Below, piece by piece: positions 8-45,475 of a stretch of DNA of 64,000 nt. How positions within the stretch are numbered: position 1 is the first letter of the stretch; each line of letters begins with the position of its first letter. The position numbers were made by a program, and so were the translations under genes. Where the stretch lies: contig JBARQV010000033.1 in NCBI GenBank assembly GCA_049643885.1, positions 11,229 to 75,228 on the forward strand, written 5' to 3'. The DNA is from Candidatus Omnitrophota bacterium. Lineage in GTDB: Bacteria > Omnitrophota > Gorgyraeia > Tantalellales > Tantalellaceae. Under the pieces are notes generated by a model. The model made no database searches. It was not told the DNA's origin and worked only from the letters and a program-made list of their open reading frames with translations.

Positions 8-3000
8 GTGGAAGTAGACGGCAAGCCGATGCAAATAACCCTGCCAAGCGAAGTGGGGAATCGAAAGGTCCTGAGCCATGAGATCTTCCCGGCATGGACC
101 GGCGGTTTCCATGTATCGTTCATTCTGGAAAAGACACCGGAGGACATAGAAAATCTCAATAAGGCAAGAGACGTATCCCTGGATAGGATCGGAGCAAAAA
201 TACGGGCGTTGGAAGAAATTCCTGAACAAGAGAGAACACCAGAAACGGAAACCGGGAGAATGCTGGAAGTCCTGAAAAAAGTTCAAGCCGACCTGAAAGC
301 ACGCGACATGAAAGACGTGAGAATTTTTGTCGCGGTTTCTCTTGAAGGAGAAAAACTCAATGCTCATATAATCAGTGGAGTTATAACGGTGCCTGTCGAT
401 CAGCTGGAGAGAACTGAGGTATTGGCATATTCTCTTGGACATGAATCGTCTCACCAGTTTGTCCCTGAAGTATACGAAATAGACGATCCGCAAGTAGAAG
501 AGGATAAAGTTATTGAAGTCGGCGTTGAAGTATTCGGTCCTATGATACAGGTATCCATTGCCCGGTCACCAGAGGGCGGATATGGGATAAACGTTACATC
601 CATAGATATTAATTTAAAAATGGATGACTCGAGGGCCGTGGAAGCGGTAAGAAACGCTTTTATCATGGCCTGGAACCAGCTTGAAGGACAGAAAGCACGC
701 GGCGAAGAGATAGATCCGGAATATGAAGATTTCGTCAGGGCAATGCTCGAAAGAGAAGGCCTGGAGCTGAAATATGAGGCGGCCCCGGGAGTTACGTTCC
801 TGATCGACGACGCCGGCATGCGGGTCCTGTCGGAAAGAACCCCGTTAATGGTGACCCAAGCTTTCCCGGTTGCCCTGGCGCGTGAGATGCTTGTCGCCGA
901 ATTGCCCGAAACCAGGCCAGTCGTTCTACAATCGCTTCTTGCGAATATCGCCAGCGGAAGGGGGATGTTTTCCTGGTTTTTGAGCCCGTTATTATGGTTA
1001 TTAACCATAGGCTCGACTCCGATTCATGAGTGGGCGCATATACAAGCAATCAGGAGATATGGCATAAGCCCTGAATTACTGTCCCCGGCCCAGAGACGTG
1101 GAGAGGATGTTGGAACTTTCTCACTAATATGGAGTCTTATCAAGGGCGAGGTCATAGTTCATAAAGCCCTTTCTGGAGTTGATGAAGCTCACATGGAGGT
1201 ACATGTAGCCGGAGTGAGAGCTAATCTTCGTGCATCTTTTTATTTTGGGATTTTACTGGGAGGTGCAATCGCTGCTTATCTTTCTCTGTCGCCTCTGGCA
1301 TTTTGGCCCATGGTCTTTTTGTCGTATCTTACAGCAATCAATTTCATATCCGTGGTGGTCGAATATTTTGGAAGAGGAGACTTGGCGATGATACTGCGAG
1401 AATCTAAATCTTCTGTTTTTGAACTAATCACCCGCAGGCCGCATCTGGAGGAGTCGATGTTAGAAAGATATTTTTATGGAGAAAAACGAAGACTTTCGAG
1501 GTTGGCGAAAAGAATGGGCGTAAATATCAAGGGATTTGAAGATGACATTGAAAAGATTCGTTACGAAGTCGCAAAAACGCAAGTAAGTTATGTTATAAAA
1601 TGGCGAGCGATTGACCAATCGTTATTAGGAGATTATACCACGCCACTATGGATAGCTGGTAAAAAAGATGAGATTTGGCAGAAAAGGTTTAATGAAATTG
1701 TTTCGTATCTACCCAGAGGCGCGCCAATATTTAACGAAATAAAAGATGATCAAGTGAAAGCAAAGATCATTGCAGAAGTTATTGGTGAAATAGAAGAAGC
1801 TGTGGGTGCCGCCCGGCTCTCGGAGCGCGAGGGATACTTCCACAGCGTTATTGGAATGGCTGATAGAAGCGGTTATTCTGAAATAATGCACGCACGGTGG
1901 GGGAAGGAAATCAATGACCTTTACTTAAAGGTGAAAAAGGACGTGGCAGAAAAGAGAAGGGAGAGAGGGGATTTAAGTTCAGGCTATGCTAAAGGGATGC
2001 TTATAAAAGAAGTATTTGATTCGATCCGCAGGAACGTTAAAGGCGACCTGAGGCAAGCCGAGAACTATGTTAAGTACCATTATGTGCTCGACATCAACCA
2101 GGTCCTCAGCGATAAAAAGGGTGTTTGCAGGCATATGGGAATAATAACGGCGATGATGTTAGAGAAACTCATTCAGCAAAAGGAACTTGATGGCCTTGCC
2201 TTCTATGTTCGCAGGGATTTTCACGCGTGGGCGATGTATGCAACAACTTACGGGGAACTCATTGTCCTGGATGCTGCCCAAAGTATCGATGGGGTTGTAG
2301 AGCAATTCGGCTATCTTGAAGATTTTGCAAGGGCGCAAGACCCATGGGCGGTTCTGAAATCTCCTGCAAGTAGCAACCGGGAAAGAAGAGCATGGGCACG
2401 TTGGTATGCGAAATATGGTAGGGATTCGGAAGATTTGATGCGAAATCCCACAGCTGTAAGGATGATTGTGGAGCGCGTGCAACGACAGGCTGCGCGAGAA
2501 AGAGCAGCAGAAGCAGAAGGCAGAAGAGATTATTACTATGGGACGGTCCTGACAAGTGGGATGGGGCCGGATCAATTGGGCAGGAAAGATATGTTTTATA
2601 TGCCCGCTGCGGTTTTGCAAGAAATTATACGGCAAGGTCCTATTGAGGAGGCTGCTCCTCAACGCGTTGAACCGGAAGATCTGGTCCGCGAGCTTGAACC
2701 TGTGGCCAGGGACGTGGCGGAAAGGTTCAGAAGGGAAGGGATTAGCCCGCAAATGTGGAATATGTACAGGAGAGAGCTTATGGCAAAAGGGCGTAGGCGC
2801 AGTGCCGTTTTCCGGAGGATACATAAGATAATCCTTGATTTCCATACATCCATTTTAATAAAGGAACAGTATAGCAGACCGGTAAGGCATGCTTATGTAC
2901 GAGACTCCGAAGCATTAAACATTGCGATTGACAGAGAACTGGCCACGGCGCGTGAGATGCTTGCCGCCGCGCCGCCAACCGTTGTGCCCGGTAAAGGTGT

Positions 3001-6000
3001 CCTCTGGTTTATCTCGGGGGCTATTTTCGGGCTTATGAACCTTTTGGGGATTACTATTACTCCGGCCAGAAAGGATTTTGTTGAAGATTTTATTATTCCT
3101 TTACTTGAAGAAGGCGGTATGCTCCTGGTGCTGTGTTATTGGGGGGCGTTGCCATATTTATTAGTAAGGCTTGGATTTGCAATTATGCATGCAAGACGAA
3201 GCTTGATAAAGGCAATACTGGGGCGCGTATTCTTAGGCAGGGCACCCCCTGTGGGGGAAAAACCGATTTCTCAGCAAGTCATTGAACAGTTAACCATCCC
3301 CGCCATCGCATCAGCCGCAGCTCTCCTGCCCCTTATAGCTTTAGCTTTTGGAGTACCATTAAGCCCGGCAATATTCGGATTCGTTGCTGGGACAGGGCTC
3401 TTTGCCCATATCCTCGGGAACCGCTATGTTACGGAATTCAAGTCCCGCCTGCAGAAAGCTGTTCTGGGAGAAGAGCTAGGCATAGATTATGAAGGCCGCC
3501 CTGCCGCCTTGGAAAAAGTAAAAACAGACTATGAAACCCTGATACGCCCCCTGACAAATATTCCCTTTGATGAACTGCCGGGTGCGACAAAAGAGATATT
3601 GTTCGGGGCTGGAGTGGACAACGGGTTGGTAGAAATGAGTAGATCGGCAGGCAGAAACGCGAGGGATCTATTCCGGTCCGGTTTTCCAGTTCTAAAGGAC
3701 GCCATTTTGGTCGAGGGAGATCCTGACAGGACAAGGGAGAATCTAATGGCTATAGCTTCCGGCCTTGTAAGGATAGGCGCCGCAAGCGAGTCGTTCGGCC
3801 ATGCCGATTATGTGTTCAGGCTGGGCTTGCCGAAGCTTATACAGGCCTTCGGCCCGGAACTGATAAGGGAGCAGTGGGAAACTTTCGTGTTATTTGGAGA
3901 AACTGCCGGCAAGAATGCGAGATATCTTTTTGGAGCGACCTTGCCGGCGTTCAGGGAAACTATAATCGTAGAGGGGGACGTCCAGAGGACCAGGCAAAAT
4001 TTGCTGGACATCGGGAACAGTATTTTAAGAGTTGTGCCGGAAAACGATGAAATAGCTGAGGAATTACTTAATAACGCCTTGCCTGCGGTGAGCGGTATTA
4101 TCATCGTCGAAGGCGACGCGGAAAAGGCCAAGGATAATTTAAACAGGATCGGAAGCAGTGTTTTAAGAGTTCTTGAGGCAGCAGGCGATAAAGTGCGGGG
4201 CCTGTTCAGGCACGATTATCCCAGGATAGAGGCCGGGCTTGGCGCTGAATTTGTAAAAACACATTGGGAAGGCATTTTCAGATTGGGCGAAGCCGCGGGA
4301 ACGGCCGCAGGCAATTTCTTCAAAAACGGGTTTGCCGGCTTCATCCAAAGCTTTGGTTTAGATTTCCTGGAGAACAACTGGCAGGATATCGTAAAACTGG
4401 GTGAGATCGCGGGTAAGCGTTCAGGCTATGATGTAGGGAATATCTTTAACCGCACATTGGTAGGGTTCGCAAAGATCTATGGACTCGAATTCGTAAAAGA
4501 CAATTGGCGAGATCTCATGGATATCGCCGGATCTACCGGCAAAGACGCCGCTTTTCTTTTGTCAAACGGGTTTTATAGTCTGGAAGAAGGATTCGGCGCT
4601 GATTTTATTAAAGCGCACTGGAAAGACCTTGTGGAATATATCAAAACGAACGGTGAATACGCACTGGAACTGGTCAAGGACGGCTTACCGTCCATGAAAG
4701 AAGCGATCGTAGTAGCGGGAGATGAAGCGGAAACGAGGCAAAATCTCCGAGCCGTGGGCGAGGCGCTTGCGTCTGTCGCCAGGGCCGCGGGGAAGCAAGA
4801 AGCGACGTACGTTTTCAGTCAGCATCTTCCCGATATTAAAAGGCGGTTCGGTAAGGAGTTTATAAGGGATTGCTGGAAGGACATGCTGGGTCTGGGCGCG
4901 AGCACCGGTAAGAATGTAAGATATTTCTTCAGATACGCGCTTTCCGAGTTCAGCAAGACGATCGTGGTAAAAGAGGACGTGGAAAAGACGCGTGAAAATC
5001 TCCGCGCCATAGGAAATGAGCTTGTAAAACTCAGCAATGCGGCGGGAGAACATGCGCTTGTAGTATTTGAGTACGGGATACCCGCCATGATAGGGGCGAT
5101 CGCGGTCGAAGGCAATGCAGAAGAAACTGCAAAAAATTTAGACATTATAGGAAGCGAACTTATAGCTTTGGCGCTGCTGGACGGCGAAGATGCCGGCAGA
5201 CTGTTCGAATATGGACTTCCGGCTCTCGAGAAAGTGCTTATAGTCGAACAGGATGCTGAAAAGACAAAAGAAAATCTTGCTAGTGCCGGAAAGGAGCTTT
5301 TTGAGCTTGCCGCAAAAGTTACAGGTGAGATGCGTATTTTTTGGCGAAGCATATTATGGTCCCAGGATGATATAGTTGCGGAAGGCGATTTCGCGCAAAC
5401 GATCGAAAATTTAAAGACTGTCGGAAAAGACCGCGTAGAATTCACCAATAACGCGGGTATGGGCGGAATTGCAGAAGATTTCTTTAAAACAGTTTTCAAT
5501 TTACGCTCACGCTTCGGACTGGATTTTCTGCCATGGCGTGATGTTATAAAATTCGGCAGAATACACTTTATTTATAATCTAAGCAACAAAGTGGGATGGG
5601 AATTTGTAAGGTCTTATTGGGGGGATTTAATAGAGATCGGTGCTGTCCTGGGGTACAAAACAGGAGAGATGTTCAATGAGGTACTTCCGGCGGTAAAATC
5701 CCTGGTTACTCCCGAAAGTATTCAGGATCTGGTCAGATGGGTGTCGTTAGGCGATCCTGTTGATACCGATATATTGAAGGAATTTCTGGCTTTATCCCGC
5801 GAAGAAAGGGCGGATTATTTTAATACCCGCGAGGATGAGCTGGCCAGAATACGCGATGGCAAATTCGACATAGCTGATCAAAAACACCTTTTTATCGGAT
5901 ACCGGCTTATTCTCGACGATATCCGAGACAATCCGACTGTAAAAAAAGACATAACATATAAAGAATATTTATCTTATGTAAAAGCCGGAAAGCCCGCCAA

Positions 6001-9000
6001 GGAAAGATTCCGTGAAAAAGACCGAGCGGAGCTTACCTACTTATGTTATGAAGCATTGAAACTCATGAATTTTATCAGAGAATTGAAAGCCAGAGCCGAT
6101 TCGCTGGGGAGACCACTTGTGTTGGTTGAGAATATTACGTACGGTTGGATGGCCACAATACCCATTGAAGAGGAGATCAAAGCCATGGGTGTAAAGATCA
6201 TAAAGACCAAAGCCGGATCGACCTTTGCTCACGATAATCCGACGGTTATGCACGGCTTGAATCCTCATGGCCCGGATGATTCCAAACTTTTTAGCGAAGA
6301 AGATCTGAGATATTTCGTAGAAGAACAGCCTTTGGTGTTGGTGGTGGACGGAACTTATTCGCTTGACCCGCAAAAAATGGCGCGTTTTAGAAGAAAAGGG
6401 GCACGATATCCAGATGCCCACCAGGCTTATCGTAATTATTTCCACGCCATAAGCGGAGAGCCTAAAGATAATGATTTTGATATCGATAGATTGCGACTTG
6501 GAAGCAAGCTTAAAGAAGATAATGTTTATAAGGCAGTAAGGAGAAGTGCCGAAGACATCAAGCCGGCGCCCGAAAGGGGTAATTACCAGATGAGATTCTG
6601 GTATCCGGGAAAGAAGTCACTTGGATTAAATAGCCAGAGAAAATCAAGAAAACTTTCAAGCCAATTAGATCTTATCAATTCTAAAAATACGGACGAACCT
6701 CTTTTAGATAAAATCAGCGGTCCGACATTAATTTTTTCTGTGGCTAACATGGAAGATGAGGCCATACCCGATAGTGTCAGGCAGGGGGGGATATATCATA
6801 ATTCCGCGCATTTTGACGACAAAGAACCCTTTGGGAGAACGTTTATTGATGTTACACCTTACGGTCCGAAGATCTCGAATGAATTTCAAAATGCAGCCAT
6901 CGCGGAATACAAGCGATTAAGCCAGCAATTAGGAGTTGTGCCGCCCCTTGCCCCGCCTGCCGTGATGGCGAGGGAAAGCCGCTGGGCCCAGTATGCGGCA
7001 CCTATGGCCGGCGGCGTTCTGGGTTTTCTCACGGTATTTTTATTCGGCTCGGCATTGTTGCCGGGCATATTGAGCGTCTTGCTTTTATCAGCGTATTTTC
7101 CGCTTGCGAGGCAAACGGCCCTGGCGCGTGAAGTTGCCGGTGAAACGGGCGTCGCCGCTAGGCCCGTGGATACGTTCGGGGATATTCTTGGCAACTTCGG
7201 GCCTATTATCGGTCCCTTGGTGTGGCTCCATGAATTTGTTCACCGCCTTACCGGCGTGTTGGGCGTAAAAAGGCTAGGCATATTTAGCAGATTTATGGAC
7301 GAGGCAATGGCTTATTCGGTCGAATCGGTATTCGCCATGCCTGTAGTTGCTGTTTCTTCGATCGTGTATGGGTTAGTCATGCTTTTCATGCCCCCCAGGG
7401 GCGAAGAAGCCCGCGCCCCGCCTGCCGAACCGGGGATAGATTTCGAGGGCGAGTGGTTGACTGTGCCCATGATCGCTGAACGTCTTGAAGAAGAGCCACA
7501 ACTTACAATTGCAATATGGGAAATGCTCACACCGGAACTTAGGAAAGCTGTTGAGAGCCTGCTTAGTGAAGAGAGGAAAAGGCTGGTTAAGATCCGACTT
7601 TTTATTTATGAACACCTGGCTGAACTCCAAAGCAAGGAAGTTTCGAGTGATCTCGAAGATAGAAAGAACAGCGCAAGTTTACTAGAGCGGCAAAGAAAAG
7701 TTTTTGAGATCGGACGAAAGGGATTTGAAGCTCATGGAGTAGAGCATGGTTTAAATGTTTTTCTACAGATCATGCTGGATGGGCTCATCCGGAATGAATT
7801 TAAGGGCCCGCTAAATATGGGACCAAAAGAGTTCTTTGCCGGTCCTTACGGACCGCATTATATCGTTCTTGATCCGCGCAGTGTCAAAAAACCGGGCTTC
7901 GAATGGCAAGAGAGGCAGAACCATTTATTATATCTTGTTCCAAACGGGTCGGACTACAGGTTACTAATAAGCTTGGTAGATAAAGCACGTGATGAAGGGA
8001 TCATTAAACCGGAAGACGCCGGATTCATAAAGAACAGGATAACGACTTATGACATGTTCATTGCAATGACTAAAGAGGTTTCTGTTCCGGAGGAAGTACC
8101 GGCTACAACAGCAGCTGTTGAGGTTCCTGTTGCAGAGGAAGCGGCTGTTACTACGGTATTTGTTGAGGCCCCTGCCATTGCGCCTGCTGAGGTTATACCC
8201 GAGGAAGAAGTTCTTCCCGAGGCGCAGAGGGTATACTCAGCGGCGAGGGATCTTATTCCGGTGCTCCTGGATCTTATAAGGAGAAATTCACCGACTTACC
8301 TTGTAGGGCCTTCTTTTCTGGAGGATCTGGCGAAAGATGAGGGACGCAACAGGAAGGTGGAAAGGGTACTGGGCAAGGAAGGCCACAGGATAGATGCCAG
8401 GTATTGCGGGTACGATCCGACGCGCGCGGATCCGGAAGAAGCCTGGTTTGAAGAACTTACAAAACCTGGTGGAATTCTTGACAGAGCACTCAAAAGGTTC
8501 GGTATAGACGTTGTGGAAAACCCAACGTCAAGAATGACCATAAGGCTTGTCAGGGGGGCGGATGAAGAAAGGAACCAGGACAGAAGAAGTAAATTAGAAG
8601 CGTTAATTGTGAAAAGGCTCATGGATATAAATCCTGTCTTGAGATCAATGCTTGAAACAATGAAAGAAGAAGATCGGAAAAACTGGTTAAGGCAGTACGT
8701 GAAGATAATAGATGTAGATGTCGAAGGTATCGAGCATGTGAATCCCGTGCTGGACCTCTTTGCCGATGCCGGGGCGATGGAGCTGGACAGGTACGAGAAA
8801 AAAGATTACAAGGACGAAGCCCCTGACGAGCTTAAGGAACGATTGGTCATACTGTTAAAGCTTTCCCTGGGCAGTCTGGTCGATTCAGAGAGAGGTGACA
8901 TACTCGAAGGCCTGACCGCGGGTAAGCTTTACGGGGTTTTAGAAAGGGTTTTTTCGGGGCTAGCGTATTTCGCGGTCAAAAGAATAGATTGGGAAAGTAT

Positions 9001-9046
9001 AAGGGACAGGATAGATGCCGAGAACGAAGTAATAAGATCGCTGTAA
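8..9046 (+). CDS. Giant multidomain protein, 5'-partial (gene continues upstream of window); 3012 aa visible. Contains TM blocks with HExxH motifs, a transglutaminase-like Cys-His-Asp core, a long alpha-helical tandem-repeat array, and a C-terminal domain shared with the next ORF
   Basis: Uninterrupted ORF of 9 kb reaching the window edge with no stop upstream; TAA at 9044-9046; strong periodic coding signal; internal paralogy to downstream ORF at 9061. Confidence 0.85.
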   Translation: MEVDGKPMQITLPSEVGNRKVLSHEIFPAWTGGFHVSFILEKTPEDIENLNKARDVSLDRIGAKIRALEEIPEQERTPETETGRMLEVLKKVQADLKARDMKDVRIFVAVSLEGEKLNAHIISGVITVPVDQLERTEVLAYSLGHESSHQFVPEVYEIDDPQVEEDKVIEVGVEVFGPMIQVSIARSPEGGYGINVTSIDINLKMDDSRAVEAVRNAFIMAWNQLEGQKARGEEIDPEYEDFVRAMLEREGLELKYEAAPGVTFLIDDAGMRVLSERTPLMVTQAFPVALAREMLVAELPETRPVVLQSLLANIASGRGMFSWFLSPLLWLLTIGSTPIHEWAHIQAIRRYGISPELLSPAQRRGEDVGTFSLIWSLIKGEVIVHKALSGVDEAHMEVHVAGVRANLRASFYFGILLGGAIAAYLSLSPLAFWPMVFLSYLTAINFISVVVEYFGRGDLAMILRESKSSVFELITRRPHLEESMLERYFYGEKRRLSRLAKRMGVNIKGFEDDIEKIRYEVAKTQVSYVIKWRAIDQSLLGDYTTPLWIAGKKDEIWQKRFNEIVSYLPRGAPIFNEIKDDQVKAKIIAEVIGEIEEAVGAARLSEREGYFHSVIGMADRSGYSEIMHARWGKEINDLYLKVKKDVAEKRRERGDLSSGYAKGMLIKEVFDSIRRNVKGDLRQAENYVKYHYVLDINQVLSDKKGVCRHMGIITAMMLEKLIQQKELDGLAFYVRRDFHAWAMYATTYGELIVLDAAQSIDGVVEQFGYLEDFARAQDPWAVLKSPASSNRERRAWARWYAKYGRDSEDLMRNPTAVRMIVERVQRQAARERAAEAEGRRDYYYGTVLTSGMGPDQLGRKDMFYMPAAVLQEIIRQGPIEEAAPQRVEPEDLVRELEPVARDVAERFRREGISPQMWNMYRRELMAKGRRRSAVFRRIHKIILDFHTSILIKEQYSRPVRHAYVRDSEALNIAIDRELATAREMLAAAPPTVVPGKGVLWFISGAIFGLMNLLGITITPARKDFVEDFIIPLLEEGGMLLVLCYWGALPYLLVRLGFAIMHARRSLIKAILGRVFLGRAPPVGEKPISQQVIEQLTIPAIASAAALLPLIALAFGVPLSPAIFGFVAGTGLFAHILGNRYVTEFKSRLQKAVLGEELGIDYEGRPAALEKVKTDYETLIRPLTNIPFDELPGATKEILFGAGVDNGLVEMSRSAGRNARDLFRSGFPVLKDAILVEGDPDRTRENLMAIASGLVRIGAASESFGHADYVFRLGLPKLIQAFGPELIREQWETFVLFGETAGKNARYLFGATLPAFRETIIVEGDVQRTRQNLLDIGNSILRVVPENDEIAEELLNNALPAVSGIIIVEGDAEKAKDNLNRIGSSVLRVLEAAGDKVRGLFRHDYPRIEAGLGAEFVKTHWEGIFRLGEAAGTAAGNFFKNGFAGFIQSFGLDFLENNWQDIVKLGEIAGKRSGYDVGNIFNRTLVGFAKIYGLEFVKDNWRDLMDIAGSTGKDAAFLLSNGFYSLEEGFGADFIKAHWKDLVEYIKTNGEYALELVKDGLPSMKEAIVVAGDEAETRQNLRAVGEALASVARAAGKQEATYVFSQHLPDIKRRFGKEFIRDCWKDMLGLGASTGKNVRYFFRYALSEFSKTIVVKEDVEKTRENLRAIGNELVKLSNAAGEHALVVFEYGIPAMIGAIAVEGNAEETAKNLDIIGSELIALALLDGEDAGRLFEYGLPALEKVLIVEQDAEKTKENLASAGKELFELAAKVTGEMRIFWRSILWSQDDIVAEGDFAQTIENLKTVGKDRVEFTNNAGMGGIAEDFFKTVFNLRSRFGLDFLPWRDVIKFGRIHFIYNLSNKVGWEFVRSYWGDLIEIGAVLGYKTGEMFNEVLPAVKSLVTPESIQDLVRWVSLGDPVDTDILKEFLALSREERADYFNTREDELARIRDGKFDIADQKHLFIGYRLILDDIRDNPTVKKDITYKEYLSYVKAGKPAKERFREKDRAELTYLCYEALKLMNFIRELKARADSLGRPLVLVENITYGWMATIPIEEEIKAMGVKIIKTKAGSTFAHDNPTVMHGLNPHGPDDSKLFSEEDLRYFVEEQPLVLVVDGTYSLDPQKMARFRRKGARYPDAHQAYRNYFHAISGEPKDNDFDIDRLRLGSKLKEDNVYKAVRRSAEDIKPAPERGNYQMRFWYPGKKSLGLNSQRKSRKLSSQLDLINSKNTDEPLLDKISGPTLIFSVANMEDEAIPDSVRQGGIYHNSAHFDDKEPFGRTFIDVTPYGPKISNEFQNAAIAEYKRLSQQLGVVPPLAPPAVMARESRWAQYAAPMAGGVLGFLTVFLFGSALLPGILSVLLLSAYFPLARQTALAREVAGETGVAARPVDTFGDILGNFGPIIGPLVWLHEFVHRLTGVLGVKRLGIFSRFMDEAMAYSVESVFAMPVVAVSSIVYGLVMLFMPPRGEEARAPPAEPGIDFEGEWLTVPMIAERLEEEPQLTIAIWEMLTPELRKAVESLLSEERKRLVKIRLFIYEHLAELQSKEVSSDLEDRKNSASLLERQRKVFEIGRKGFEAHGVEHGLNVFLQIMLDGLIRNEFKGPLNMGPKEFFAGPYGPHYIVLDPRSVKKPGFEWQERQNHLLYLVPNGSDYRLLISLVDKARDEGIIKPEDAGFIKNRITTYDMFIAMTKEVSVPEEVPATTAAVEVPVAEEAAVTTVFVEAPAIAPAEVIPEEEVLPEAQRVYSAARDLIPVLLDLIRRNSPTYLVGPSFLEDLAKDEGRNRKVERVLGKEGHRIDARYCGYDPTRADPEEAWFEELTKPGGILDRALKRFGIDVVENPTSRMTIRLVRGADEERNQDRRSKLEALIVKRLMDINPVLRSMLETMKEEDRKNWLRQYVKIIDVDVEGIEHVNPVLDLFADAGAMELDRYEKKDYKDEAPDELKERLVILLKLSLGSLVDSERGDILEGLTAGKLYGVLERVFSGLAYFAVKRIDWESIRDRIDAENEVIRSL
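2110..2280 (+). other. Transglutaminase-like cysteine-protease core (Cys-His-Asp) inside ORF 8-9046
   Basis: KGVCRHMGIITAMM...DFHAWAMYATTYGELIVLDAAQ matches the G-x-C...HAW...D signature of transglutaminase-like superfamily. Confidence 0.6.
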
Positions 9047-9060: not shown

Positions 9061-12000
9061 ATGAATTGGCTTAAGAGGGTTCACAGGGATCAAGAGATCA
9101 AGAAGCTCTTCAGCTTCCAGAGGCGGAGTCTAGCCCTTAAAGCCTGTTCAGTTATCACCTCGGTCGCGTTTTTCTTTAATATTCTTTCTTACGATATCGC
9201 CCTTTCGGGCCCCCTCCAGAAAAAACAACCGGCTACGGAAGGGCAAGCCTGGGCCATACGAGTTCCGCCGGAGTCTTCTCACGTCGGCTCCGGTGTGAAC
9301 TCAGGCCCGGGCACTCCCCAAAAGCTTACCATCAAAGGCTTTACACTGCCCGAATATCTTGGTGTGGTGACCGACAGGTTCAGTCCCCCGGCGAAGGAAC
9401 CTGATAAGATAGTGGTTTTGATACAGGACGCGCATTGTAACTATGCGGCCCAGAAAAAGATCGCCGAGATCGTCCGGCATTTCAACAAGCTCTACCGCGT
9501 GCGCGTCGTCAACATGGAAGGAGGTAAGGGCGATTATAACCTTTCGATATTCCTGGATATAGGCGACAAGAAGGTCAGGGAAGAGGTATCCGATTACTTT
9601 GTGAAAGAGGGGCAGATAAGCGGCGCTGAATACTTCGCCATAAACGATCCTTTCAGGGCCTACTTATGGGGAGTGGAAACCTCTGAACTTTACCTGGAGA
9701 ACCTTAAAGTTTACAGGGAGTCCCTTGGATACAGAGGTGAAGTCGAGTATTTCCTGGATTCGCTTACCTATATTTTGAACAATCTTAAGCGGCACATTTA
9801 TTCGAAGGAACTCTTGGATTTTGACAACGAATATTCCCGGTATAAGGCCGGCGATATCAAATTCAAGGATTACGTGAATTACCTTTTAAGCGTGGCCAAG
9901 GAGAAAAAGGTATATATCAAGAATCTCCTGCACCTGTATTTGTTATATCACTCGATAGCATGGGAAGGGGAAATAGATTTCAAGAGAGCGGATCATGAAA
10001 GGGATATCTTGATCAGCAGGCTTGAAGGCGTTCTGTCCGGGAAGGAGATGGACGAGCTTATCAACAAGACCGTAGAGTTCAGGAACAAGAGGCTTTCGCA
10101 GACCGAATTCTACGGGTATCTCCTGAAGAAGGCGGAGGAAGTGAAGCTCGACCTGGCCGATTTCCCGGAGTTCAAAAAATACCTCGGTTATATTTTCCTC
10201 TATCATGTCGTGGACAGGGCAAAAGTAATGGAGGAGATAGGCATTCTCGAAAACGCTATAAAAGGATCTCTTTACGAGAACGATAAACAGAAGGAGCTAG
10301 ACCTTCTTTCCAAGCATTTGACTCTTACAAAGAACTTTTTCGACGCCACTTTGACAAGAAGCGATTACGAATATTACGAACAGAACAAATTAGCGTTTGA
10401 AACACAGAATTACATTTCGTTTATAGAAAAAGAAGCCCCAAAGTACAAAATAACCGCCCAACTGCCTTCTGATATACAAAATCTTGATTTTCGTATGGCC
10501 GAAATGGACAAGTTCTACGAATACTCGTTCAAGAGGGACCTCGCCTTCCTCGACAACATAAAATTTAATGCGACTGAATCTCCAACATCCAACATCCAAC
10601 AACCAACATCTATTTTGATTACCGGCGGTTTCCACGCCGAAAATCTCTGTAAGTTGTTTAAAGAAAATGATATAGCATATATATGCATAATGCCGAATTT
10701 TACGAGCGAAGAAGGTTATGTTTGCCCGTATTTCGACCTCTTGGCGGGTGAAAGACCTCAAGTTGAAATGATGATCAGCGATATCATGGGCTATTCACTT
10801 GCTATAGCGAGCATACTCAGCCAGCTGGGGCCGGACGTGTATGATGAAAACGCTCGCAGGATATTCGGGCTTCATGTTCAGTGGAAACGCGCTGTGGCGG
10901 AAGGAAAAGGCGGCCTCGCGATCATGGCAGAGGATGGGAGATTCCTCGGCGCGGTCAATGCCAGGGGAGAGATCGTCCCTGAAGACAGGTCAAAAGGCTT
11001 TGAAGTGGCGCGGGTTCCGGCAGTTGTCCCGGCTATCGCTCCGGCAACTCCCGAATTGGTGGATCTATTCGGGAACTGGTTCGATCTGAATCTGGAACTT
11101 GATTATTTTAGCGGAGAGTTTGAAAGAGGTGAGGCGAAAGGGCTGGCGGCGATACAGGAAGGGGTGCAGGCCGAAAGAGGCATGTATCCCAAAGAAGAAA
11201 TAGAAGGCGGCGATTTCTATTTTGACCTGGAAGCCTTCTCTTATTTTTCAAGGGGACTTATCGACAAAGCCACTTTAGCGGAAGTCATGAGGCCTTACAG
11301 CGATAAGCTGCCCGGCCAGATAAATGTTATAGTCGTGGACAAAGGACCAAAGGCCGTAGCCAGATACGGGAACACTATAGCGATAAACCGCGCCGTGTTC
11401 GAGCTTACGCGCGGCGTCTCTCCCGTTATCCGCAATTTGATCACTATGAAACTCCTGGACACGGCCCTGAGGGCAAGCAGCGAGACCGGTATCAGGGAAG
11501 GAGAGGATCTGGGTATTTCGCTTGCAGACCTGAGAAGGGTCGGGAGCCGCGAGAAACCGGACAGGATAATGGAAGTCATACGCCAGGTATTCTCTCCAGA
11601 GTCAAAACTCGCTTCCGACGAACAGGAAGAAAATCTGATCCTGGCTTACGATTATGACCAAAAATATATTGCTCAAGGCAGTTTCAACGAAGAGATACTG
11701 AAACAGGCCATTAAAAGAGGTTTCACCACGGTCATAGTTAGATTTTTGGAAGGCGACGTCATAGGAGGACAGGTCGAGGTCATATTCGCGAACAAGTCGG
11801 ACGTGCTAGTGGAACGGATAGATATGCTTCCCGAGAATATGGATGTTCTTTTCTCGGCCGTCGGCGAGAACATGGAACCGGGCTCCGTATGGCGCTTCAC
11901 GCGGCGTTTCCTGACATACGATATTAAACGACGAGCGTTTCTCGCAAAAGAACGCCCCAGGATAATGACCTACGAATTGGAGAGAAAACTTGAAGTGTAT

Positions 12001-15000
12001 CGCGAGAGGATCGGCGACAGGGAGCTTGAAGGGCGGAATTTCGGGTATGAATACAAGATAGAACGTGACGAAGCGAGCCCTCTTGGCAGGAAGGTAAGGA
12101 TAGACCTGACAGAGAACCCCCCGGAAGGGTTTGAGAGCGCGAGGCCTGTGATCAAGGCGAAAAAATATACTTACGAGGACATCTATGAATATTTTAATTT
12201 TTATCACAAATACTGGATGCCCAAAGAAGGACACGGTGATTGGGAGCTTAGCAGGTTCCTGAGGGAGATAGTGGCCAGTGACCTCACTCCTGAAGAGAAG
12301 CGCGAAAAGATACTGGGGTTCTTCGAAGAGTTGACCCAGGGGCAGATGTATATGGATGGCAAGGGCGTGCCGGCGCCTGATAAAGACCCGCTTGAGCTCA
12401 TCAACGGGGAGATAAGGGGCACCCCGGGACGGCTTCCCTTTGAGGAAAGGCTTCTAGCAATGCTCAAATCGCCCCCCGAAGTGCCCCCTGTCACAAGACT
12501 GGCACCTGGTAAAGGTGTCCTGGATATTGTCGCAAGGGGTGTTTTCAAGGTAACCGATCCCTTTATGGCCAGGGAAGATGCTGAAGATCTTGTCGTTCCT
12601 GTTGTTGAGGAAGGTATTATGTTTCTCGCGCTTGCGCCGTATTTATGGGGCGGCGCGCCGTCTTTGGTCGTTCTTTTTGGGGCAGTACTTTATTTTCTTT
12701 TGAGGGCAGGGTTTATTGCGGCTCACGCGCTGCAGGACAGGGCGCCCCCGGGGAGAAGAAGGACGATCTTTGAACGAATTATCATCCCCGCCCTTATATC
12801 TGTTCCCGCTTTCTCACTTCCTGTTCTGGCATTATTAGGAGCTTCTCCCATAGCCCTTGGCATTGTTGCGGGCGCGGTGACACTTTTACATATGGCCGCG
12901 AACCGCTATGTTACTTTTGCAGGCTCAAAGTTACAGAAGGCTGTTCTTGGAAGAAAGGTCGAGCGGTATATCGGAGAGACGGGGACAGATGTCGAAAGGT
13001 TTAAGGTAGACATCGGGGATGACAGGGAATCGTTACAAAAGTTTATGAAGAAAGTAAAAAGTGTTTTTATGACCGAAAGGGAGGTCGCATCATTGCAAAA
13101 CGTTCTGGCGCACGGGGAGGATTCGCTTGAAAAAATGGGGAGAGTGGGCAAACTTTGGCAGGCCGTGCGTTACGGGAACGTGAGGCAGAAAAAAGCCGAT
13201 TTTCTTAGAGGATTCCTGGAAGAAATAAACAGCACCGGGACCTTTAGTGTAGGAAGGACCGAAACTTTAGAACCAAGAAGCGTAACAAGGACCAAGAGTG
13301 ACATGGAAATGATCGAAGAACAGCGTAAGGTATACGTGGAAGGAGTGGAAGAAATATTCAAGCGCGTAGAATCGGGCCAGGAATATGATACCGGGGAACT
13401 GGCTGGGTTATTCGACAGGATCATACTCAATGTCCTGACACAGTTCGGTATAAAGGATGACGTTATGGTGGTAGGCCTCGGGAGTTACGGTAGAGGAGTC
13501 GTCCCGATAGGGTCGGATTGTGATGCCGTGTTCATAGTAAGAGGCGCCTTTCCCGGGCTTGTAAAAAAAGATATACAGGAAAGGGTGGTCTGGATACTGG
13601 AACAGATCGGCCTGGACGTCGATCCGGGAGCTCTCCTGCCCGGGGACCTGAAAGATTGGCCTACCATGGACCAGCTCAGGGCGGCATTCGATGAAGGGGT
13701 CGAAAGCGGGGAGCTTGTGGGTATAAATATGCTGTTCCTCGCGGATAACAGGCTTGTTTCGGATGCCGATGAAAAGTCGATACCGGAGTTCGGGGAATAT
13801 TGCAGGATGAGAGACGAAATAATCACCGGGAAGCACCCGGCATTTATCGCTCACCTTGTCCTGGAAATAGCGAATTTCCTGAGGATAACCGGCGGAACAA
13901 CTCCGGAAGCGGCGGGACCTTCAGCGGGCCTTATAGATATATATTACAGGTACGGGGATGATAAAGAAAGAATCATGCAGGAGATCGGCAAGAAGATAAA
14001 ATCTTTATATACAGTTGAGGATGGCGAGCTGAGACTAAGCCCCTTGGGCGAAAGTGAAATACTCCGCGACATCAGACAATTCAACGTTAAACAGGATTCC
14101 GGCGGCATGAGGAGCCTTGACTTTGTTTTATGGACAGGGAGGGTCTTGAGCGGGGTGAACGACCCCGATCCTTACAAGATCATTGAGCAGTTGTCCGCCG
14201 AGTACGCGACCGGCGAAGAAAAAGAAATATTGAGGGAAACAATGGATTATTTCATCAAGTTAAGGTCCGTTATTAATTATATCTCCTCTTTGGAAAAGGC
14301 CGAGGGGACTCCCGAGTTCATCGAACATGACACTATAGATTTCAACGATATCAGCAGCATTGAGCAGATCGTCAAAGTCATGGAACCGCAGAACGAGCTG
14401 GTGCGGAAGATCATGTCATTAGAAGGACAGGAACAGGATATAGAATCCGAACTGAGGAAACTAAGCACTATAGATACCGAGGATGTAGAGGAGAAAAGAA
14501 GATTATCGGGAGAGAGGCGGTCAGTTCGGGGAGAATTGTTGAAATCACGCAAAGAATTGGCAGGTGAGTTCCGGGGAAAGGTCAATTCCATGAGGGGTAA
14601 AATAGCGGCAATCGGTTTAAAGGCACTGGATAAATATCTTGTAAGCTTTATAAGGGAAGGCAAGATAAGGGATGAAGACGCTTTGTACGTGATGGTCCCC
14701 ATCGGCCAAAGGGCTCTTCTTGACCTGAAAAGAGAACTGAAACACCGGGGAGAGTATAGAAAAGACCTTGCCAGGGTAATGCGCGAGCGATATCGCGCTT
14801 CACGGGCTGATCTCGGCAAAGGCGTCCTGGGATTTATCGCGGCAGGTGTTTACAAATTTACTGATACCGTCATGGACCTTTTTGGCCGTGAAAAGACGCC
14901 CGGCTACAGGGCTTTTGTCGAAGATTATTTTATTCCCGTTATAGAAGAAGGCGCGATGTTCCTCGTTCTACGCTCCTGGGGGACGTTGCCGTATTTTCTC

Positions 15001-18000
15001 ATCCGGCCTGGGTTCATACTGGCTCACGCGTTCCAGGACAGAGCTCCTCCCGGGAGAAGAAGGACGATCTTCGAACGGATCATCATCCCCGCCCTTATAT
15101 CAGTTCCTGCCTTTTCACTTCCTATTCTCGCGCTTTTGGGAGCATCGCCTGTAGTACTTGGAGTTGTCGTAGGTGCGGTGACACTTTTACACATGGCCGC
15201 CAACCGCTTTGTAACTCTAACAGGTTCCAGACTCCAGAAAGCCGTTCTGGGAAAGAAGTTTGTCCAGCCTCCCGTGAGAAAGGCCAGGATCATTTCAATA
15301 AGAGGAGAAAAGGTTTCAGATACGTATCCTGTTGTGCCTGTAACTGTTCGCGAGGAAGCGGAACCGGTGCCCGGAGTCGAATTTATAGCGACGGAGGAGA
15401 TACTCGATGAACTGATGACCGATTATCCCGAAAGGATCCTCAGAGACCGCGGGATGGACGCCGAACAATATTCAAGGCTCGCTGAAACAGCCGTTGTCAC
15501 GAACAAAAAACCGATCAAAGTCGATCCCAGCGGGAGGGAATGGATAGGTGAGCGGTATATCATCGGGCGGACCCCGTCGGGCGAGGATATTGAACTTGGC
15601 AGAGGCGGCGTAGCTGTTGTTTATTATGGCCTTGATACTCAAAGTGGAGATGAGATCGTTTTAAAGGTTCCTGAAGAAGAAAGAGCTGTTCCCGGTAAAG
15701 AAAAATTACCGTTTGAACTTAAGAAAATGTCATTATTACGCGAGGCGGCATTCATAGAATACGTGAAGGAGCAGGAAAAACAAGGCCGTGTGGATCTTGA
15801 GGGCGGGGTGGTAGATTTACGCGACGCAGGGGTCTACAGGGGGGCGTACCTTGATGATAAGGGGCGTCCGACCGGGAAGGAATACACCAATTATTATATA
15901 GCAATGGGTTACGTTCATGGTTTGACGCTGGGGGATCTTTTGAACCAGCGCGGTCCACTTGCGGAAGACGAAGCCAGGGCTCTTTTTGAAAGGGTATACG
16001 ATACAACAAGAAAACTCCACAAGATAGGCGTGATCCATATGGACATAAAATCGGATAACATCTTCATTCCTCTGGTCAACGGCAAGCTTGAGTTCGGGAA
16101 AGCCGTGCTGGGAGATTTCGGCTTTTCGATAAAAGTCGATAATGTCGATGGCCAGTATGTTCACGATTTCACGTACGGGACTGAAGGGTACGTACCGCCG
16201 GAGGGGGGCGTAGGTGTATTTTCAGGGAGGAACGACATGTACGCCCTGGGCATGACGCTTTATGAAATGATGACCGGCACGGTAATCGAAGATGGCGTCA
16301 AGGCGGAATTCACGCCCGACATGGAAAGTGCGCTTCCCGCCGATCTGGTCGCTGTTGTCAGATTGTTGACACAGGAAAACTGGGAAGAGTCGTCAGTTCT
16401 GGCGGAAGGCGTAACCGGGATATTGGAGAGAGGAAAAGTCGCCATAGCGGACGATGTCGTTCTTGAGGATTTTGAAGGGTTTGAACTCGAGGACATGGTC
16501 TTAAAGCTCATGAAGCCCGGTCAGAAATACTCAAGGGAGGAATTTAAAGCCGAGGTAGAGAAACTCAAGTTATTTTTAACGCGTGCGATAGGGGTCAATC
16601 TCCGGCAGATGGCCGGTGATATTTCGGAAGCGAAGTTCGGCGCCGGCAAGCGCGACGGATTCAAACGTTTCATCGTTAAAAAGATCCGGCATGCCGGGCG
16701 CGGCGATTACAAGCACGCGTTAAGGGTCGAGGCTGATACCGACCAAGGCCGGCAGGTCTTCGCGGTCAAGTTCCTGAAGCCCAAAAGGCCCGAGTATACT
16801 TTTGAGGGTTTTAAGAAAATGATAAAAACAGAATACGAAAATAGCAGGAGATTAAGTGAAACGGGTTTAGCGGCGGATTATTACGGGGAACCTTATTATG
16901 TCGGTGAACGGTTCGATGAAAAGTTCTCAAAAGGATTAGAAGAGCATGGCATCCTGGGCTTGCTTGTGGGTGAATATGTGGAAGGTACGCCTGTCAGTGA
17001 GATATACGAAAGAGATGAAAGGAAAGAAGCGTATCGCGGATTAGTGAAAGCCACGGTCCGTCTCTGGCTAGAGACTTATGATCCTGAAACGCAGGCCGGT
17101 CTTGTTTTGTATGACCTTGCCGGGAGGAATTATGTGCTTGAGGATGGAACGGGCAGAATAAAGACCATAGATCCCGCGTTTTTGGATCCGTTCAATGTTG
17201 ATTACCTGAGAGACATGATAAGCGCTCTTCTCATAGCGGAATTGGCCATGGAAAAAGAAGGTATAAGGTTCGACGCGATGCCGGGCGGCGCGGACGAGAT
17301 GTATTTCCTTTCGGCGATACCGGAGGAGATAAATGATTACCTGAGGGAAAAAGGCGATAGTTTGGACGAAAGGAAAAAGAGGGCCGTCATGGAGCTTCGT
17401 GGAGCCGAGGCGTTAAGGGACATCCAGGTAGCCGTTGAGGAAAAGATCGACCTACAAAAAGCTATTGCTGACGCGTCAGGCAGAGGCGATGTGATACGGA
17501 TGGCCGAGCTAAGCGACGGAAAAGAACTGGAAATACATGACGCTAAAGCGTTAGTGCGGGACGATGAGGAGATGTTCAAAGAACTTCTGGCGGCGGTCCA
17601 GAAGGTTGTAGCTTCTTCTTTCGGGCCTTCAAAAGCATACGGGCTTGCGGCTGAGTTGAGGATAAAGCAGATCCTCCAGGAGAACGAGGTGATGATAGCC
17701 GTTGTGGGTAACGAAGTGATCGGCTTTCTGGCATATCAGTTCAAGCCCGGGGAAGCCCGGAGTATTTTAGACTGGTTTGCCGTGATGCAGGAGCATCAGG
17801 GCAAAGGCATCGGCTCGAGGATGATGGACGAATTCATGGAGGTGTCACTGAAAGCCCGCGAGACCGGCATCGAAAAGGCCTGGTGGCATTCATGGGACGA
17901 AAAGTCAGACGATTTTTATATTGGATATTTTAGAAAAAAAGGAATAAAACCTGAACAGGTCGGACGTAATTTTACTCTTGGACTGGATGCAGTTGGCGCG

Positions 18001-19431: not shown

Positions 19432-19446
19432 TATAAGAGGTGTGTG

Positions 19447-22400
19447 ATGTTCAGGTTAAGATTTTTAGGACATGATCTTATTAATAAGGCGATAAGCCTC
19501 ATGCTTGTATTTGCCTTTTTCTCCGCCTTTGTCGTTAAGGACACATGGCCGGTAGAGGACATCGGCGGATTCAGACTGGAGGAAGTTGTGACGGGCGAGC
19601 TTGCGCCGATCGACGCGGATACTTTCACCATACCCGATTACCTGGCGAGCGTGCGGGATTCATACAAGGGTTCTTCGAACAAGGTCATCGTACACATCCA
19701 GGACGCCCACTGTAATTACGGCGCGCAGAAAAGGGTATCGGAAATAATAAATTACCTCAAGCAGCAATACCGGATAAGTGAAGTCAACCTCGAAGGCGGC
19801 AGGGGCGATTACGATCTTACGGTCTTCACGCGTATCCCCGAGAAAGACGTGAGGGAGAAAGTCGCCGATCTTTTCGTCCGGGAGGGAGCATTAAGCGGCT
19901 CGGAATATTTCGCCGTAAATAATCCCGGTGAAGTGTCGCTGTGGGGCGTGGAGGATGCCAGGCTGTATATGGATAACCTCAAAGCGTACAGGGACTCACT
20001 CTCATATAAAGGCGAAGTCGATTCTTGCCTGAAGACCCTTTCGCATATTTTGAACAATCTCAAGCAGAAGATCTATACCGAAGAACTTTTTGATCTTGAC
20101 CTCAAGTATTCACAATACAAAGCAGGAAATATCGGCTTCAAGGATTATCTTGTATATCTCCTGGCCAAGGCTAAGAATAACGCCGTAGATATCAAAAGAT
20201 ATCCTAATGTCTATCTCCTTGAACAGTCCCTCCAGCAGGAAGAAGCGGTGGATTTCAAAGAGGCTACTTTCCAGAGAGACGAACTTGTGAAGCGGCTGGA
20301 AAAGATGCTGCCAAAGCGGGCGCTGGAAGAGCTGGTAATGAAGACAGTCGAATTCAGGGCCAAAAGACTTTCCCAGTATGAATATTACGAACATATTTTA
20401 AAGAACGCGAATATAGTGAATATAGACATGGAGGATTATCCCCGCCTCAGAGAATATATCGTCTATATCTCCCTTTACCACGCGATCGATAAGCTCGCGG
20501 TGATGGCCGAGATCACTTCTCTTGAAGACACCATAAAGGGTATCCTTTTCCAGGACGATATCCAGAAGGAGCTGAGTGTCCTCTCCAAAAACCTGGTATT
20601 GACCAAAAATATCTTCGACATAGAACTGACCAAAGAGGATTACAGGTATTACAGGGAGAACAGGTCTTCCTTCAGAGCGCGTAATTTCACCGCGTTCATC
20701 GACCGGGAGGCGCCTAAATACAAAATAGACGCCAGGCCCGATAAAGGGATCGAACGGCTCGACGATCACCGGGAAAGTATCGAGAAGTTCTTTGCGGTCT
20801 CCTTCGACAGGGACCTTGCCTTCATGAAAAATATCCGGTTCAAGGAACAGGCTGAAGGCATAGAGGCCGCTGTGATAGTTACCGGCGGTTTCCACACCGA
20901 GAACCTGTCTGAATTATTCAGGAAAGAAGGGATATCGTATATTTCCATTATCCCGAACTTCACTAACGAAAAGGGTTACGAGTGCCCATATTTCAAGATC
21001 CTGGCGGGCGGAGAGACGGATATCGAAAAAACGGTCGATTCTGCATTCTCCGCGTTACAGGTCCCAAGCATGCTTACCGAACTCGGCATCGAGGCAGGCG
21101 GCGAAAGGGAAGTGAACAGGTTCAAGTTATCCGCGAGGATCGCCGAGGCGATGATAAGAGGGAATTCTTTTATCATCAAAACGCCTTTTGAACTGGTGAC
21201 TTTCAGAATGGAAAACGGCAAGGTCGTGTATGACGTGGAAAAGCCCGCGGACCTGGCAAGCGCCAGTTGTGATGTCGTGGTCTCTGATGTCGGGCCGCTA
21301 AATTACCAGGCGCAGGAAGAAGTGGTAGATGAACCCCTAAAAGAGGCATACGATGAAGGCAGGTATAAGAGCGTTTTCGGGGAACCCGGGAAAGATCTGG
21401 ATAAGGTTGTTGATTACATCAGGAATGTCCTGGGCCTTGGAGAAGTCGCTGACCGGCTTGTTGTCTTGCAGAGGGCCGGGAGAGTCAACCTGGTGTGGGG
21501 AAGGCCCGGGGAGCCGCTGGGCAGCTTCAAGGGGCACGCCGGAAGGATGGGTATTCATATAAATAATGACCTTGCGAAGACGCCTGGGCAGATACAGGCT
21601 GTCCTGATACATGAGGCGATGGCGTATTTTTTTCAGCTGGGACATGATTTTAACGAAAACGTGATGATAGCGTACGCAAAAGGATCGGGAGCCAGAGATA
21701 CAGCGGATCTGCGGAGGGCATTAAGCGGCGCGGAAATGCGTCCCGTCGCCGAAAGGACAAGGGAGGAAAGGGAAAGAGTCGGCGAGGATTATGCCGAGCC
21801 TGTCGGGGTAGCCGCGTTCAGCCTTACCGGCTTTCTGCTAAGGGCACAGACGTCCGCCGAGCCTGTCCAGGCGATGATCGCCCAGGCAAGGGACCTTTAT
21901 AACCGCGGTATGGTACAAGATGCGGTTTCATTGGCCGCGGCAGCTGTCAATTTTATCAGGGACCAGTTTGAGGACGTTGACGACCCGGACATATTCGGTG
22001 CCATAAGGGCCTTTAAGGATTTTGAGAAGAATGTTCCGATGCAGGTGCTTCTGGGAGTCCTTGATACGAATTACGACGCCTTCCGGTCTTTGTGGGAGAG
22101 GTTCGATACCGGCCGCGCGCAGGATTATGGCAGGGACGTCCTGAAGACAAGGATAGAGAACGAGGATATGCCGGATTATGTCCGCGTGCGGGCATTGGAA
22201 AATGAAAATTTCATGAAACTTTGCCGCGAAATGTTCGGGGATGCCGTGGCAGCCGAGTATCTTGAGAGTCTTCCAAAATGGGGGGATGCCGCGTATGATG
22301 TGGCAGGGATAAAGGATATTGAAAAAAGCGATATCCCTTCAAAACAGAATGCGATCAGGGCCCAAAGGGAAAAAAGGATATGGGTCAAGGACAAGCGTCA

Positions 22401-29262: not shown

Positions 29263-29484
29263 TAGAGAAGTTAGTATTTCAAAAAGCAAGCTCAATTAAT
29301 TTGTATTCCTTATATATTAGGTGTAAACTAAAATTAGGGTACATATATCTAGCTTGGCGTATAGATAACCGTAAGCTTGGACTTAGGTTAGAGGATATGT
29401 CTGGTCTAGGTTGTGTGCCTTTTTTATAGGCTAAATAGTAAATAGTTTTGAAAAGTATTAATACAATTGTTTGCGAGGTGCGTC

Positions 29485-40702: not shown

Positions 40703-41034
40703 AAATTCTTAACGCTTTTCCGTCATTTTAAGCTGACATGGCAAAACTCGCCCCTCGCTATAGGAATGCTCGGGGCTCGGACAGTTGCCATGCCTACGCA
40801 TGTTTAATAGCCGTGACAACTTCAGCTTAAAATATCCGGAAAAGCTGAATTTTTGAATGATCCGTCAGGCATGCATTCGCCGTTATATGATTTTATTGTT
40901 TTTGCAGAACTAATTTTCGCGCCCCTCTGCCACTTTGACACTTTTATGATGTAGTTGCCCAATTTATTGGGCAAACCATCGAGCAAGAATAGTTGCTCGA
41001 TAAATCGAGCAACTACATATATAATGGTTTTAAT

Positions 41035-41973: not shown

Positions 41974-41977
41974 GTTA

Positions 41978-42136: not shown

Positions 42137-42141
42137 CTTCT

Positions 42142-43600: not shown

Positions 43601-43649
43601 GCCTTCGGCGATGGAAGAGCACCATATTTCCATATTAATCAAAAATAAG

Positions 43650-45435: not shown

Positions 45436-45475
45436 TCCCTTCCGGGGAGGCGTCGCTCCGATTGTAAGTTTAGGA

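Follow-up and report, generated by a model that had tools for sequence, protein, structure and literature searches.

Omnitrophota are uncultured, ultra-small bacteria suspected of living as predators or parasites, and they are known for giant genes that encode almost entirely unannotated proteins. We analyzed a 64-kb window from one such bacterium (assembly GCA_049643885.1, contig JBARQV010000033.1), meaning the whole stretch of 64,000 nucleotides, whose list of open reading frames (ORFs) includes six tandem genes, O1 to O6, all on the + strand. Our subject is the conserved C-terminal domain (CTD) encoded in this array, which closes in a strongly conserved tail. The proteins of this family share one architecture, comprising an N-terminal hydrophobic signal or anchor, an N-terminal domain (NTD) of 520 residues, a variable insert of 0 to >6000 residues, and the CTD. 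The full-length O1 gene, of 3957 codons, lies on NCBI contig JBARSM010000028.1. The genes and their domains, scored with profile hidden Markov models (HMMs), are as follows.

8..9046, + strand: O1, the 3' 3012 codons of a giant gene whose 5' end lies outside the window
8156..9043, + strand: O1 CTD (residues 2717-3012; CTD HMM, 152 bits)
8909..9043, + strand: O1 tail module, the last 45 residues (helix, strand, KRIDW turn and terminal helix ...VIRSL-stop)
9061..19431, + strand: O2, a complete giant of 3456 residues; an identical protein occurs on public contigs
9319..10878, + strand: O2 NTD (residues 87-606; NTD HMM, 680 bits)
15592..16296, + strand: protein kinase domain in the variable insert of O2 (Pfam PF00069, E = 3.9e-24)
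17677..17919, + strand: GNAT acetyltransferase domain in the variable insert of O2 (Pfam PF00583, E = 7e-9)
18586..19428, + strand: O2 CTD (residues 3176-3456; CTD HMM, 172 bits), with the tail module at 19294-19428
19444..26406, + strand: O3, a giant of 2320 residues, with the NTD at 19600-21132 (NTD HMM, 739 bits)
26209..26403, + strand: O3 tail module (CTD HMM, 16.2 bits; profile positions 243-308, the last ~65 residues only)
26545..29262, + strand: O4, 905 residues, a member of family F2 with an N-terminal hydrophobic segment and neither NTD nor CTD
29170..29259, + strand: O4 tail variant ...IILLPRAEKVKIEDLQDIYNKQKNLLAAA-stop, on its own not significant by the tail HMM
29467..36831, + strand: O5, a giant of 2454 residues, with the NTD at 29626-31179 (NTD HMM, 743 bits)
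36751-36828, + strand: degenerate O5 tail ...EAYIEVVISV, a divergent C-terminus not significant by the CTD and tail HMMs
36881..40192, + strand: O6, 1103 residues, with the NTD at 37004-38554; no complete family member in the window is shorter
39497..40189, + strand: O6 CTD (residues 873-1103; CTD HMM, 38 bits), with the tail module at 40055-40189

We compared the C-termini of O1 and O2 by BLASTP and found that the last 299 residues align with 142/299 identities (47%, E = 8e-95; O1 residues 2716-3012, O2 residues 3163-3456), which places the start of the domain ~120 nt upstream of 8275 and 18661, where the original prediction, made from the letters of the window, had set it. The strings it listed as common to O1 and O2 and the five chain endings it quoted are all present in the translations. 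It had described a domain shared by these two giants; their homology was borne out, but the domain is not limited to them, being present in O6 and in hundreds of proteins elsewhere. We then scored the window proteins with a CTD HMM from which window sequences had been left out and a tail HMM derived solely from other genomes. The tail HMM matched O2 (42.5 bits, E = 2e-15), O1 (37.6 bits, E = 7e-14), O6 (25.0 bits, E = 6.5e-10), and O3 (15.6 bits, E = 5e-7), each match ending at the stop codon, while neither HMM gave a significant match to O5 or O4. The whole CTD is found in O1, O2, and O6, whereas O3 has only its last ~65 residues; the O5 tail retains about half of the key positions, and a single weak BLAST link (E = 2e-6) connects O5 to the CTD of protein P0075. 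Statistically, the tail is therefore carried by four of the six C-termini (O1, O2, O3, and O6) and not by five, as first counted. Domain and tail, earlier taken as two separate features, are one: the tail is the end of the same CTD of ~250-290 residues, and its last ~45 residues are the best-conserved part.

The family extends far beyond the window. With O6 as the query we retrieved 217 Omnitrophota proteins, matched through the NTD, and nearly all of those without contig truncation end in the same tail. Local BLAST of the last 350 residues showed homology between the O1/O2 domain and the CTD of short members of ~890-960 residues (P0078: 34% identity, E = 6e-44), with 92 of 97 C-termini falling in one cluster. 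A word-indexed search with the O1 CTD (window 8144-9043) had returned only the paralog O2 owing to a prefilter miss; hundreds of relatives at 25-35% identity were overlooked in this way, and negatives from word-indexed searches are unreliable for fast-evolving domains. An exhaustive hmmsearch with a 21-sequence CTD profile against 1.84 billion protein cluster representatives gave 328 matches at E <= 1e-3 and 261 at E <= 1e-10, in proteins of 104 to 7165 residues. Among the best 150 of the 328 matches, nearly all reach both the last profile position and the last residue of the protein. Finally, a scan of the species representatives in GTDB with the full-length alignment revealed at least 557 loci, and those listed are all from Omnitrophota (some labelled with a "Planctomycetia" placeholder); several genomes have more than one locus. 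The CTD is shown to be the C-terminal domain of an Omnitrophota-specific, multi-copy family.

The end of the chain is the most striking part of this domain. When 210 tails were aligned gap-free and counted from the C-terminus, strong preferences appeared at position -25 (L, 71%), -23 (I, 78%), -20 (I/V, 93%), -19 (D/N, 94%), -18 (W/Y/F, 94%), -12 (W/Y/F, 84%), -9 (A/S, 79%), -5 (V/I/L, 97%), -2 (S/A, 99%), and -1 (L/V, 96%), so that family proteins close with ...[ILV]-L-x-[S/A]-[L/V]-COOH. At genomic loci, 45 of 48 tail matches run precisely to the stop codon. Conservation in the CTD is highest over the last 45 columns, with 1.69 bits per column against ~1.0 for the remainder (197 aligned proteins), and a second peak of conservation holds an invariant Arg in the ME(L/I)DRY helix. 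The tail similarity seen in the window therefore persists in the larger family alignment, which marks it as a genuine and strongly constrained feature. It could be argued that such similarity has no special function and arises simply because the genes are recently duplicated or have exchanged sequence by gene conversion in the array; the genes are indeed tandem paralogs on one strand. However, the O1 and O2 CTDs are just 47% identical, and the tail is kept across the at least 557 loci of many Omnitrophota genomes whose CTDs are otherwise only 15-35% identical. The tail is also better conserved than the remaining CTD. Family-wide conservation contradicts this explanation and makes it very improbable.

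We modelled the O1 CTD with AlphaFold2 from a 49-sequence alignment and obtained a compact alpha/beta domain (predicted local distance difference test, pLDDT, 92.2; predicted template modelling score, pTM, 0.87) with strands at 51-58, 83-90, 130-136, 186-192, 242-247, and 274-278 and helices between them. The tail corresponds to a helix (259-270), a strand (274-278), and a terminal helix (286-299); the first two lie in blocks of pLDDT 95-98, and the terminal helix reaches 72-82. With its helix and strand elements set in a confident model, the tail is predicted to belong to the fold and not to form a free peptide. We detected no relative of the CTD in Pfam, NCBIfam, or PDB, including by profile search against PDB sequences, and known non-secretion domains were likewise unmatched, which leaves room for a new sorting or docking signal. 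Neither the NTD nor the CTD is covered by curated families, and in a literature search on the giant genes of Omnitrophota we found no description of the family, the NTD fold, or the tail.

At the other end of these proteins, the NTD of ~520 residues is common to O2, O3, O5, and O6 at 40-47% identity and is present in 43 of the 46 ORFs that carry the tail and have a complete 5' end. Its conserved motifs are rich in His and acidic residues (HIQDAH, CEGG, and TGGFH), and 60 sequences share the invariant residues H73, Q75, D76, H78, E106, and T469-H473 including G470 and G471. The NTD shares the alpha/beta core fold of the TIKI/TraB/ChaN/erythromycin-esterase-like hydrolases, as in the structures 2rad and 2qgm (EreA-like), 2g5g (ChaN), 5t09 (HopBA1), 8bqs_DQ (TraB), 5w6l (RRSP), and 6xcq (EreC). 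Families of this superfamily are characterized by conserved His/Glu catalytic motifs, two of the GxxH type and an acidic residue, and several members are extracytoplasmic or delivered effectors. Unlike them, the NTD has a helical insertion of ~290 residues between core strands and is always or nearly always coupled to the CTD. Sequence searches of Pfam and PDB gave no match to the NTD (E up to 10), also after the helical insertion had been cut out to leave the core alone, and a Pfam scan of the 49 aligned sequences gave scattered weak matches only.

These observations bear on a second interpretation, in which the NTD would be a hydrolase and the CTD the other half of a joint enzymatic or regulatory unit, folding back to bind substrate or to auto-inhibit, with the terminal carboxylate possibly near the His/Glu/His site and the inserts as looped-out accessory modules. 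The near-constant co-occurrence of the two domains speaks for it, as do the shortest members of ~890-960 residues, which contain little beyond NTD and CTD and by synteny take the place that the six-gene array has in the window. The invariant NTD residues with the hydrolase-superfamily fold, the invariant Arg in the ME(L/I)DRY helix of the CTD, and the predicted location of both domains on one membrane side (see below) would also fit. Nevertheless, related tails occur on two other families, F2 and F3, that have no NTD, and the NTD is also missing from some CTD proteins that start with a membrane segment (e.g., P0198). The full-length O6 model, with a pTM of only 0.57, also weighs against this interpretation, which we regard as doubtful.

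The predicted topology places the two domains together. The N-termini of O2 to O6 each have one hydrophobic segment with a K/R-rich N-flank (Kyte-Doolittle >1.8 over 19 residues), and a hydrophobic segment is found at the N-terminus of 83% of 163 NTD-bearing members (Kyte-Doolittle >1.6). By the positive-inside rule, the K/R-rich flank puts the N-terminus inside and predicts the bulk of the protein outside; as O3, O5, and O6 have a single N-terminal segment, their NTD and CTD must lie on the same side of the membrane. Around this segment we also observed two subfamily motifs: M[FLS]DARSN(T)P... precedes it in one subfamily with many short members (e.g., P0087, P0097, and P0110), and D-A-R-[AS], resembling a signal-peptidase site, follows it in the subfamily that includes O6. 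Between NTD and CTD, inserts across the family include Pkinase and GNAT (both O2), PPDK_N with PEP-utilizers, HATPase_c, ABC1, metallophosphatase, and membrane modules. For the kinase and GNAT domains of the predicted extracytoplasmic O2, either the topology estimate is wrong or the proteins are effectors that act inside another cell.

The membrane modules of O1 and O2 are repeats of ~170 residues with about four hydrophobic helices each and the motifs EEG..., F(I/A)xAH, and HMAAN(R)Y, located as follows.

2972-3478, + strand: four-helix module of O1 (residues 989-1157)
12484-12960 and 14815-15261, + strand: four-helix modules of O2 (residues 1142-1300 and 1919-2067)

By eye, their EE, FxxxH, and HxxxN motifs suggested CPBP intramembrane proteases, but this assignment was rejected, as it had no Pfam support at E up to 10. 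A Pro/Ala-rich linker before the CTD was likewise discarded (median P+A 12.5% vs 11.5% overall).

We further compared the CTD with known C-terminal signals, given that the original prediction had likened the tail to the secretion signals of type I and type IX secretion systems (T1SS and T9SS) and suggested a dedicated export route. T1SS substrates have no N-terminal Sec signal and are exported from the cytoplasm in one step, typically though not universally with repeats-in-toxin (RTX) sequences, and their signals (RTX toxins, proteases, and HasA) lie in the last ~50 residues, poorly conserved and unfolded. The family resembles them in that the last ~50 residues are informative and include an amphipathic helix with a hydrophobic extreme C-terminus. 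In contrast to T1SS substrates, it has an N-terminal hydrophobic segment, a highly conserved and structured tail, and no operon for an ATP-binding cassette (ABC) transporter, membrane-fusion protein, and TolC. Such a set was absent from the window, with only outer membrane efflux protein (OEP), membrane-fusion protein, and AcrB genes of the resistance-nodulation-division (RND) type found in 5 of 82 loci. The Sec-type segments of O2 to O6, together with the absence of GGxGxD (RTX) repeats from O1 to O6, argue against T1SS. The T9SS CTD of Bacteroidota cargo is an Ig-like beta-sandwich of 70-100 residues. T9SS cargo is like the family in its N-terminal Sec signal, diverse passenger domains, conserved extreme C-terminal domain, and many paralogs per genome; the Omnitrophota CTD differs in its size of ~250-290 residues, its predicted alpha/beta fold, its phylum, and in that no PorU/PorV-like partner was seen. 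NCBIfam sorting-domain models, including those of the TIGR04183/TIGR04131 type, did not match O6, O4, the O1 C-terminus, or P0029. A C-terminal transmembrane helix or hydrophobic segment, the hallmark of sortase and exosortase substrates (LPXTG and PEP-CTERM), is absent from O1 to O6, the tail being an amphipathic, charged helix. The likeness to T1SS or T9SS signals thus did not hold up, as the features that define them are lacking and no transporter or sortase-like neighbor is recurrent in 82 loci.

We also compared the CTD with other C-terminal modules. Dockerins of cellulosomal enzymes direct assembly on a common partner and also occur on unrelated co-encoded families; like them and other C-terminal docking domains, the CTD is conserved and sits at the C-terminus of secreted, multi-modular proteins that have N-terminal signals. 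Unlike a dockerin, it has a different fold without the duplicated Ca-binding F-hand motif and no known cohesin-like partner, and Pfam gave no dockerin match (PF00404) on any CTD. XVIPCD (the conserved domain of Xanthomonas type IV secretion system, T4SS, effectors) and the Dot/Icm signals are C-terminal domains or signals that mark diverse effectors for one machine, and kinase or acetyltransferase domains are possible on such effectors as on the present family. Those effectors, however, lack an N-terminal signal or anchor, the CTD showed neither sequence nor fold similarity to them, and no T4SS or coupling-protein genes were found in the window. The register fixed to the free carboxylate and the small, basic, and hydrophobic last positions (x-[RQK]-[SA]-[LV]-COOH) recall the peroxisomal signal PTS1 and PDZ ligands, but the residue order differs from PTS1 [SAC]-[KRH]-[LM] and PDZ [ST]-x-hydrophobic, the motif lies within a helix of a folded domain, and there is no known receptor. 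In our view the CTD is a conserved module at the C-terminus of exported, multi-modular proteins that has an unrelated fold and a register unusually locked to the C-terminus.

To survey the neighborhood, ORFs were clustered from 82 loci with 10-kb flanks. Recurrent neighbors were housekeeping genes, the RND pump (5 loci), and the large-protein families F2 (5 loci) and F3 (9 loci). No transporter or sortase-like gene recurred within these flanks, and neither the 64-kb window nor any recurrent cluster of the 82 loci contained a secretion-system, ABC-transporter, or sortase/PorU-like gene. In locus L005 (4075-9727), an operon for an OEP (TolC-like), a membrane-fusion protein, and an RND pump lies immediately upstream of P0005; with only 5 of 82 loci carrying it, this pump is probably a coincidental neighbor.

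O4, a member of family F2, shows no BLAST match to the other giants, and a CTD in O4 was rejected on comparing its last 350 residues with the CTD profile (hhalign probability 0.1%); the family has neither NTD nor CTD. Homologs of O4 are P0247, P0248, and P0250 and genes in loci L010, L015, L039, and L088, and they share a conserved tail in the same register (hhFxPxA[ED]PLD[LFY]xxhKxhYxxQxxhLxxA-stop). At the family level, hhalign aligned F2 and CTD C-termini end to end over 34 columns, weakly (E = 0.008). F3 proteins, of 875-1800 residues, have an N-terminal hydrophobic segment and end in ...LPIxPhNxEEhRxhYExxxEhhxxA-stop; their last ~100 residues, from the DRY helix to the tail, align with the last 92 CTD columns (hhalign probability 75%, E = 2.5e-5). 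No F3 gene is visible in the window, which starts inside O1, and F3 genes lie elsewhere at the following positions.

L005:3-1865, L012:6637-9264, and L013:6845-9592: F3 genes
L019:272-4789, L028:4281-9695, and L073:2842-5469: F3 genes

Together with the strong conservation of the tail, its terminal position in nearly all of the best 150 matches, and its fixed register, the related tails on two other co-located families form the pattern that would be expected of a shared recognition module.

The genomic setting of the array is conserved as well. The downstream block (40993-51334) encodes an aldo-keto reductase, a glycoside hydrolase of family 1 (GH1, minus strand), a 520-residue signal-bearing protein, FabG, acyl carrier protein (ACP), ketoacyl-ACP synthase (KAS), acyl-CoA dehydrogenase (ACAD), and the beta and alpha subunits of electron transfer flavoprotein (ETF). 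It is syntenic with L009, which has a single 893-residue member in the slot, and with L010, which has four genes. This synteny points to the array in the window as a lineage-specific expansion at a conserved locus, where the one to six family genes in the upstream slot make a copy-number hotspot. Further downstream, the window breaks off at its 3' end within a giant ORF of at least 2377 residues (56870-64000, + strand), whose product carries a hydrophobic segment at its N-terminus as well as a P-loop (DGDPGTGKT), is outside the NTD family, and has its C-terminus beyond the window.

Taken together, we favor, with moderate confidence, the reading that the CTD folds into a docking or recognition module and is not an export signal of the T1SS or T9SS type. 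The CTD would lie on the same membrane side as the NTD, outside the cytoplasm by the positive-inside rule, and its terminal strand-helix unit with the free carboxylate may form a surface that is read by a common partner, either an envelope component common to these proteins or the NTD of the same protein. Such docking could tether or assemble the co-encoded giants in a dockerin-like manner. Several points weigh against this reading. The common partner is hypothetical, confidence in the CTD model is lowest at the terminal helix, and the full-length O6 model predicts the CTD poorly (pLDDT 50-72). Packing of the tail on the core and of the CTD on the NTD is judged only from pLDDT and secondary structure, and the mechanism is inferred, not shown. 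The extracytoplasmic placement rests on hydropathy and a positive-inside estimate, and inserts that depend on ATP or acetyl-CoA (kinase, GNAT, and PPDK) fit uneasily with it. Moreover, a strictly fixed C-terminal end is equally expected of a terminal sorting signal.

That last point leads to a further alternative, in which the CTD or the tail alone would be a new phylum-specific sorting or export signal, read after Sec translocation by an outer-envelope machine (similar to a type II secretion system, T2SS, or type IV pili, or other) according to the logic of T9SS and resulting in secretion or surface attachment. Its appeal lies in the T9SS-cargo-like architecture of N-terminal signal or anchor, diverse passengers, and conserved C-terminal domain, in nearly invariant last residues suggesting that the free C-terminus is read, and in the related tails of two unrelated co-located families; delivery into prey or host cells would account for the kinase, GNAT, and PPDK inserts, and a link of Omnitrophota giant genes to T2SS-like loci has been published. 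We nonetheless consider this alternative rather unlikely, since the window and the 10-kb flanks of 82 loci yielded no recurrent candidate machine, the tail contributes an integral strand and helix to the modelled alpha/beta domain, the CTD almost always accompanies one particular NTD instead of many unrelated cargo types, and it resembles no catalogued sorting domain. A bolder proposal, which we put forward only tentatively, is that the strand-helix unit ending in [S/A]-[L/V]-COOH is a new Omnitrophota-specific sorting or docking signal on at least three Sec-exported giant families, and that a dedicated receptor or machine places these proteins, including those bearing kinases and acetyltransferases, on the cell surface or into prey.

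The analysis defines a phylum-wide chassis consisting of an N-terminal anchor, a TIKI/ChaN-like hydrolase domain, and a register-locked C-terminal alpha/beta domain, with inserts of up to thousands of residues between the domains. The profile HMMs recognize and delimit family proteins in fragmented metagenomes, the conserved NTD gains a candidate catalytic activity, and the terminal motif provides a specific handle on the assembly, anchoring, or export of these proteins. If the tail is a true sorting signal, it would represent a new bacterial protein-targeting system.

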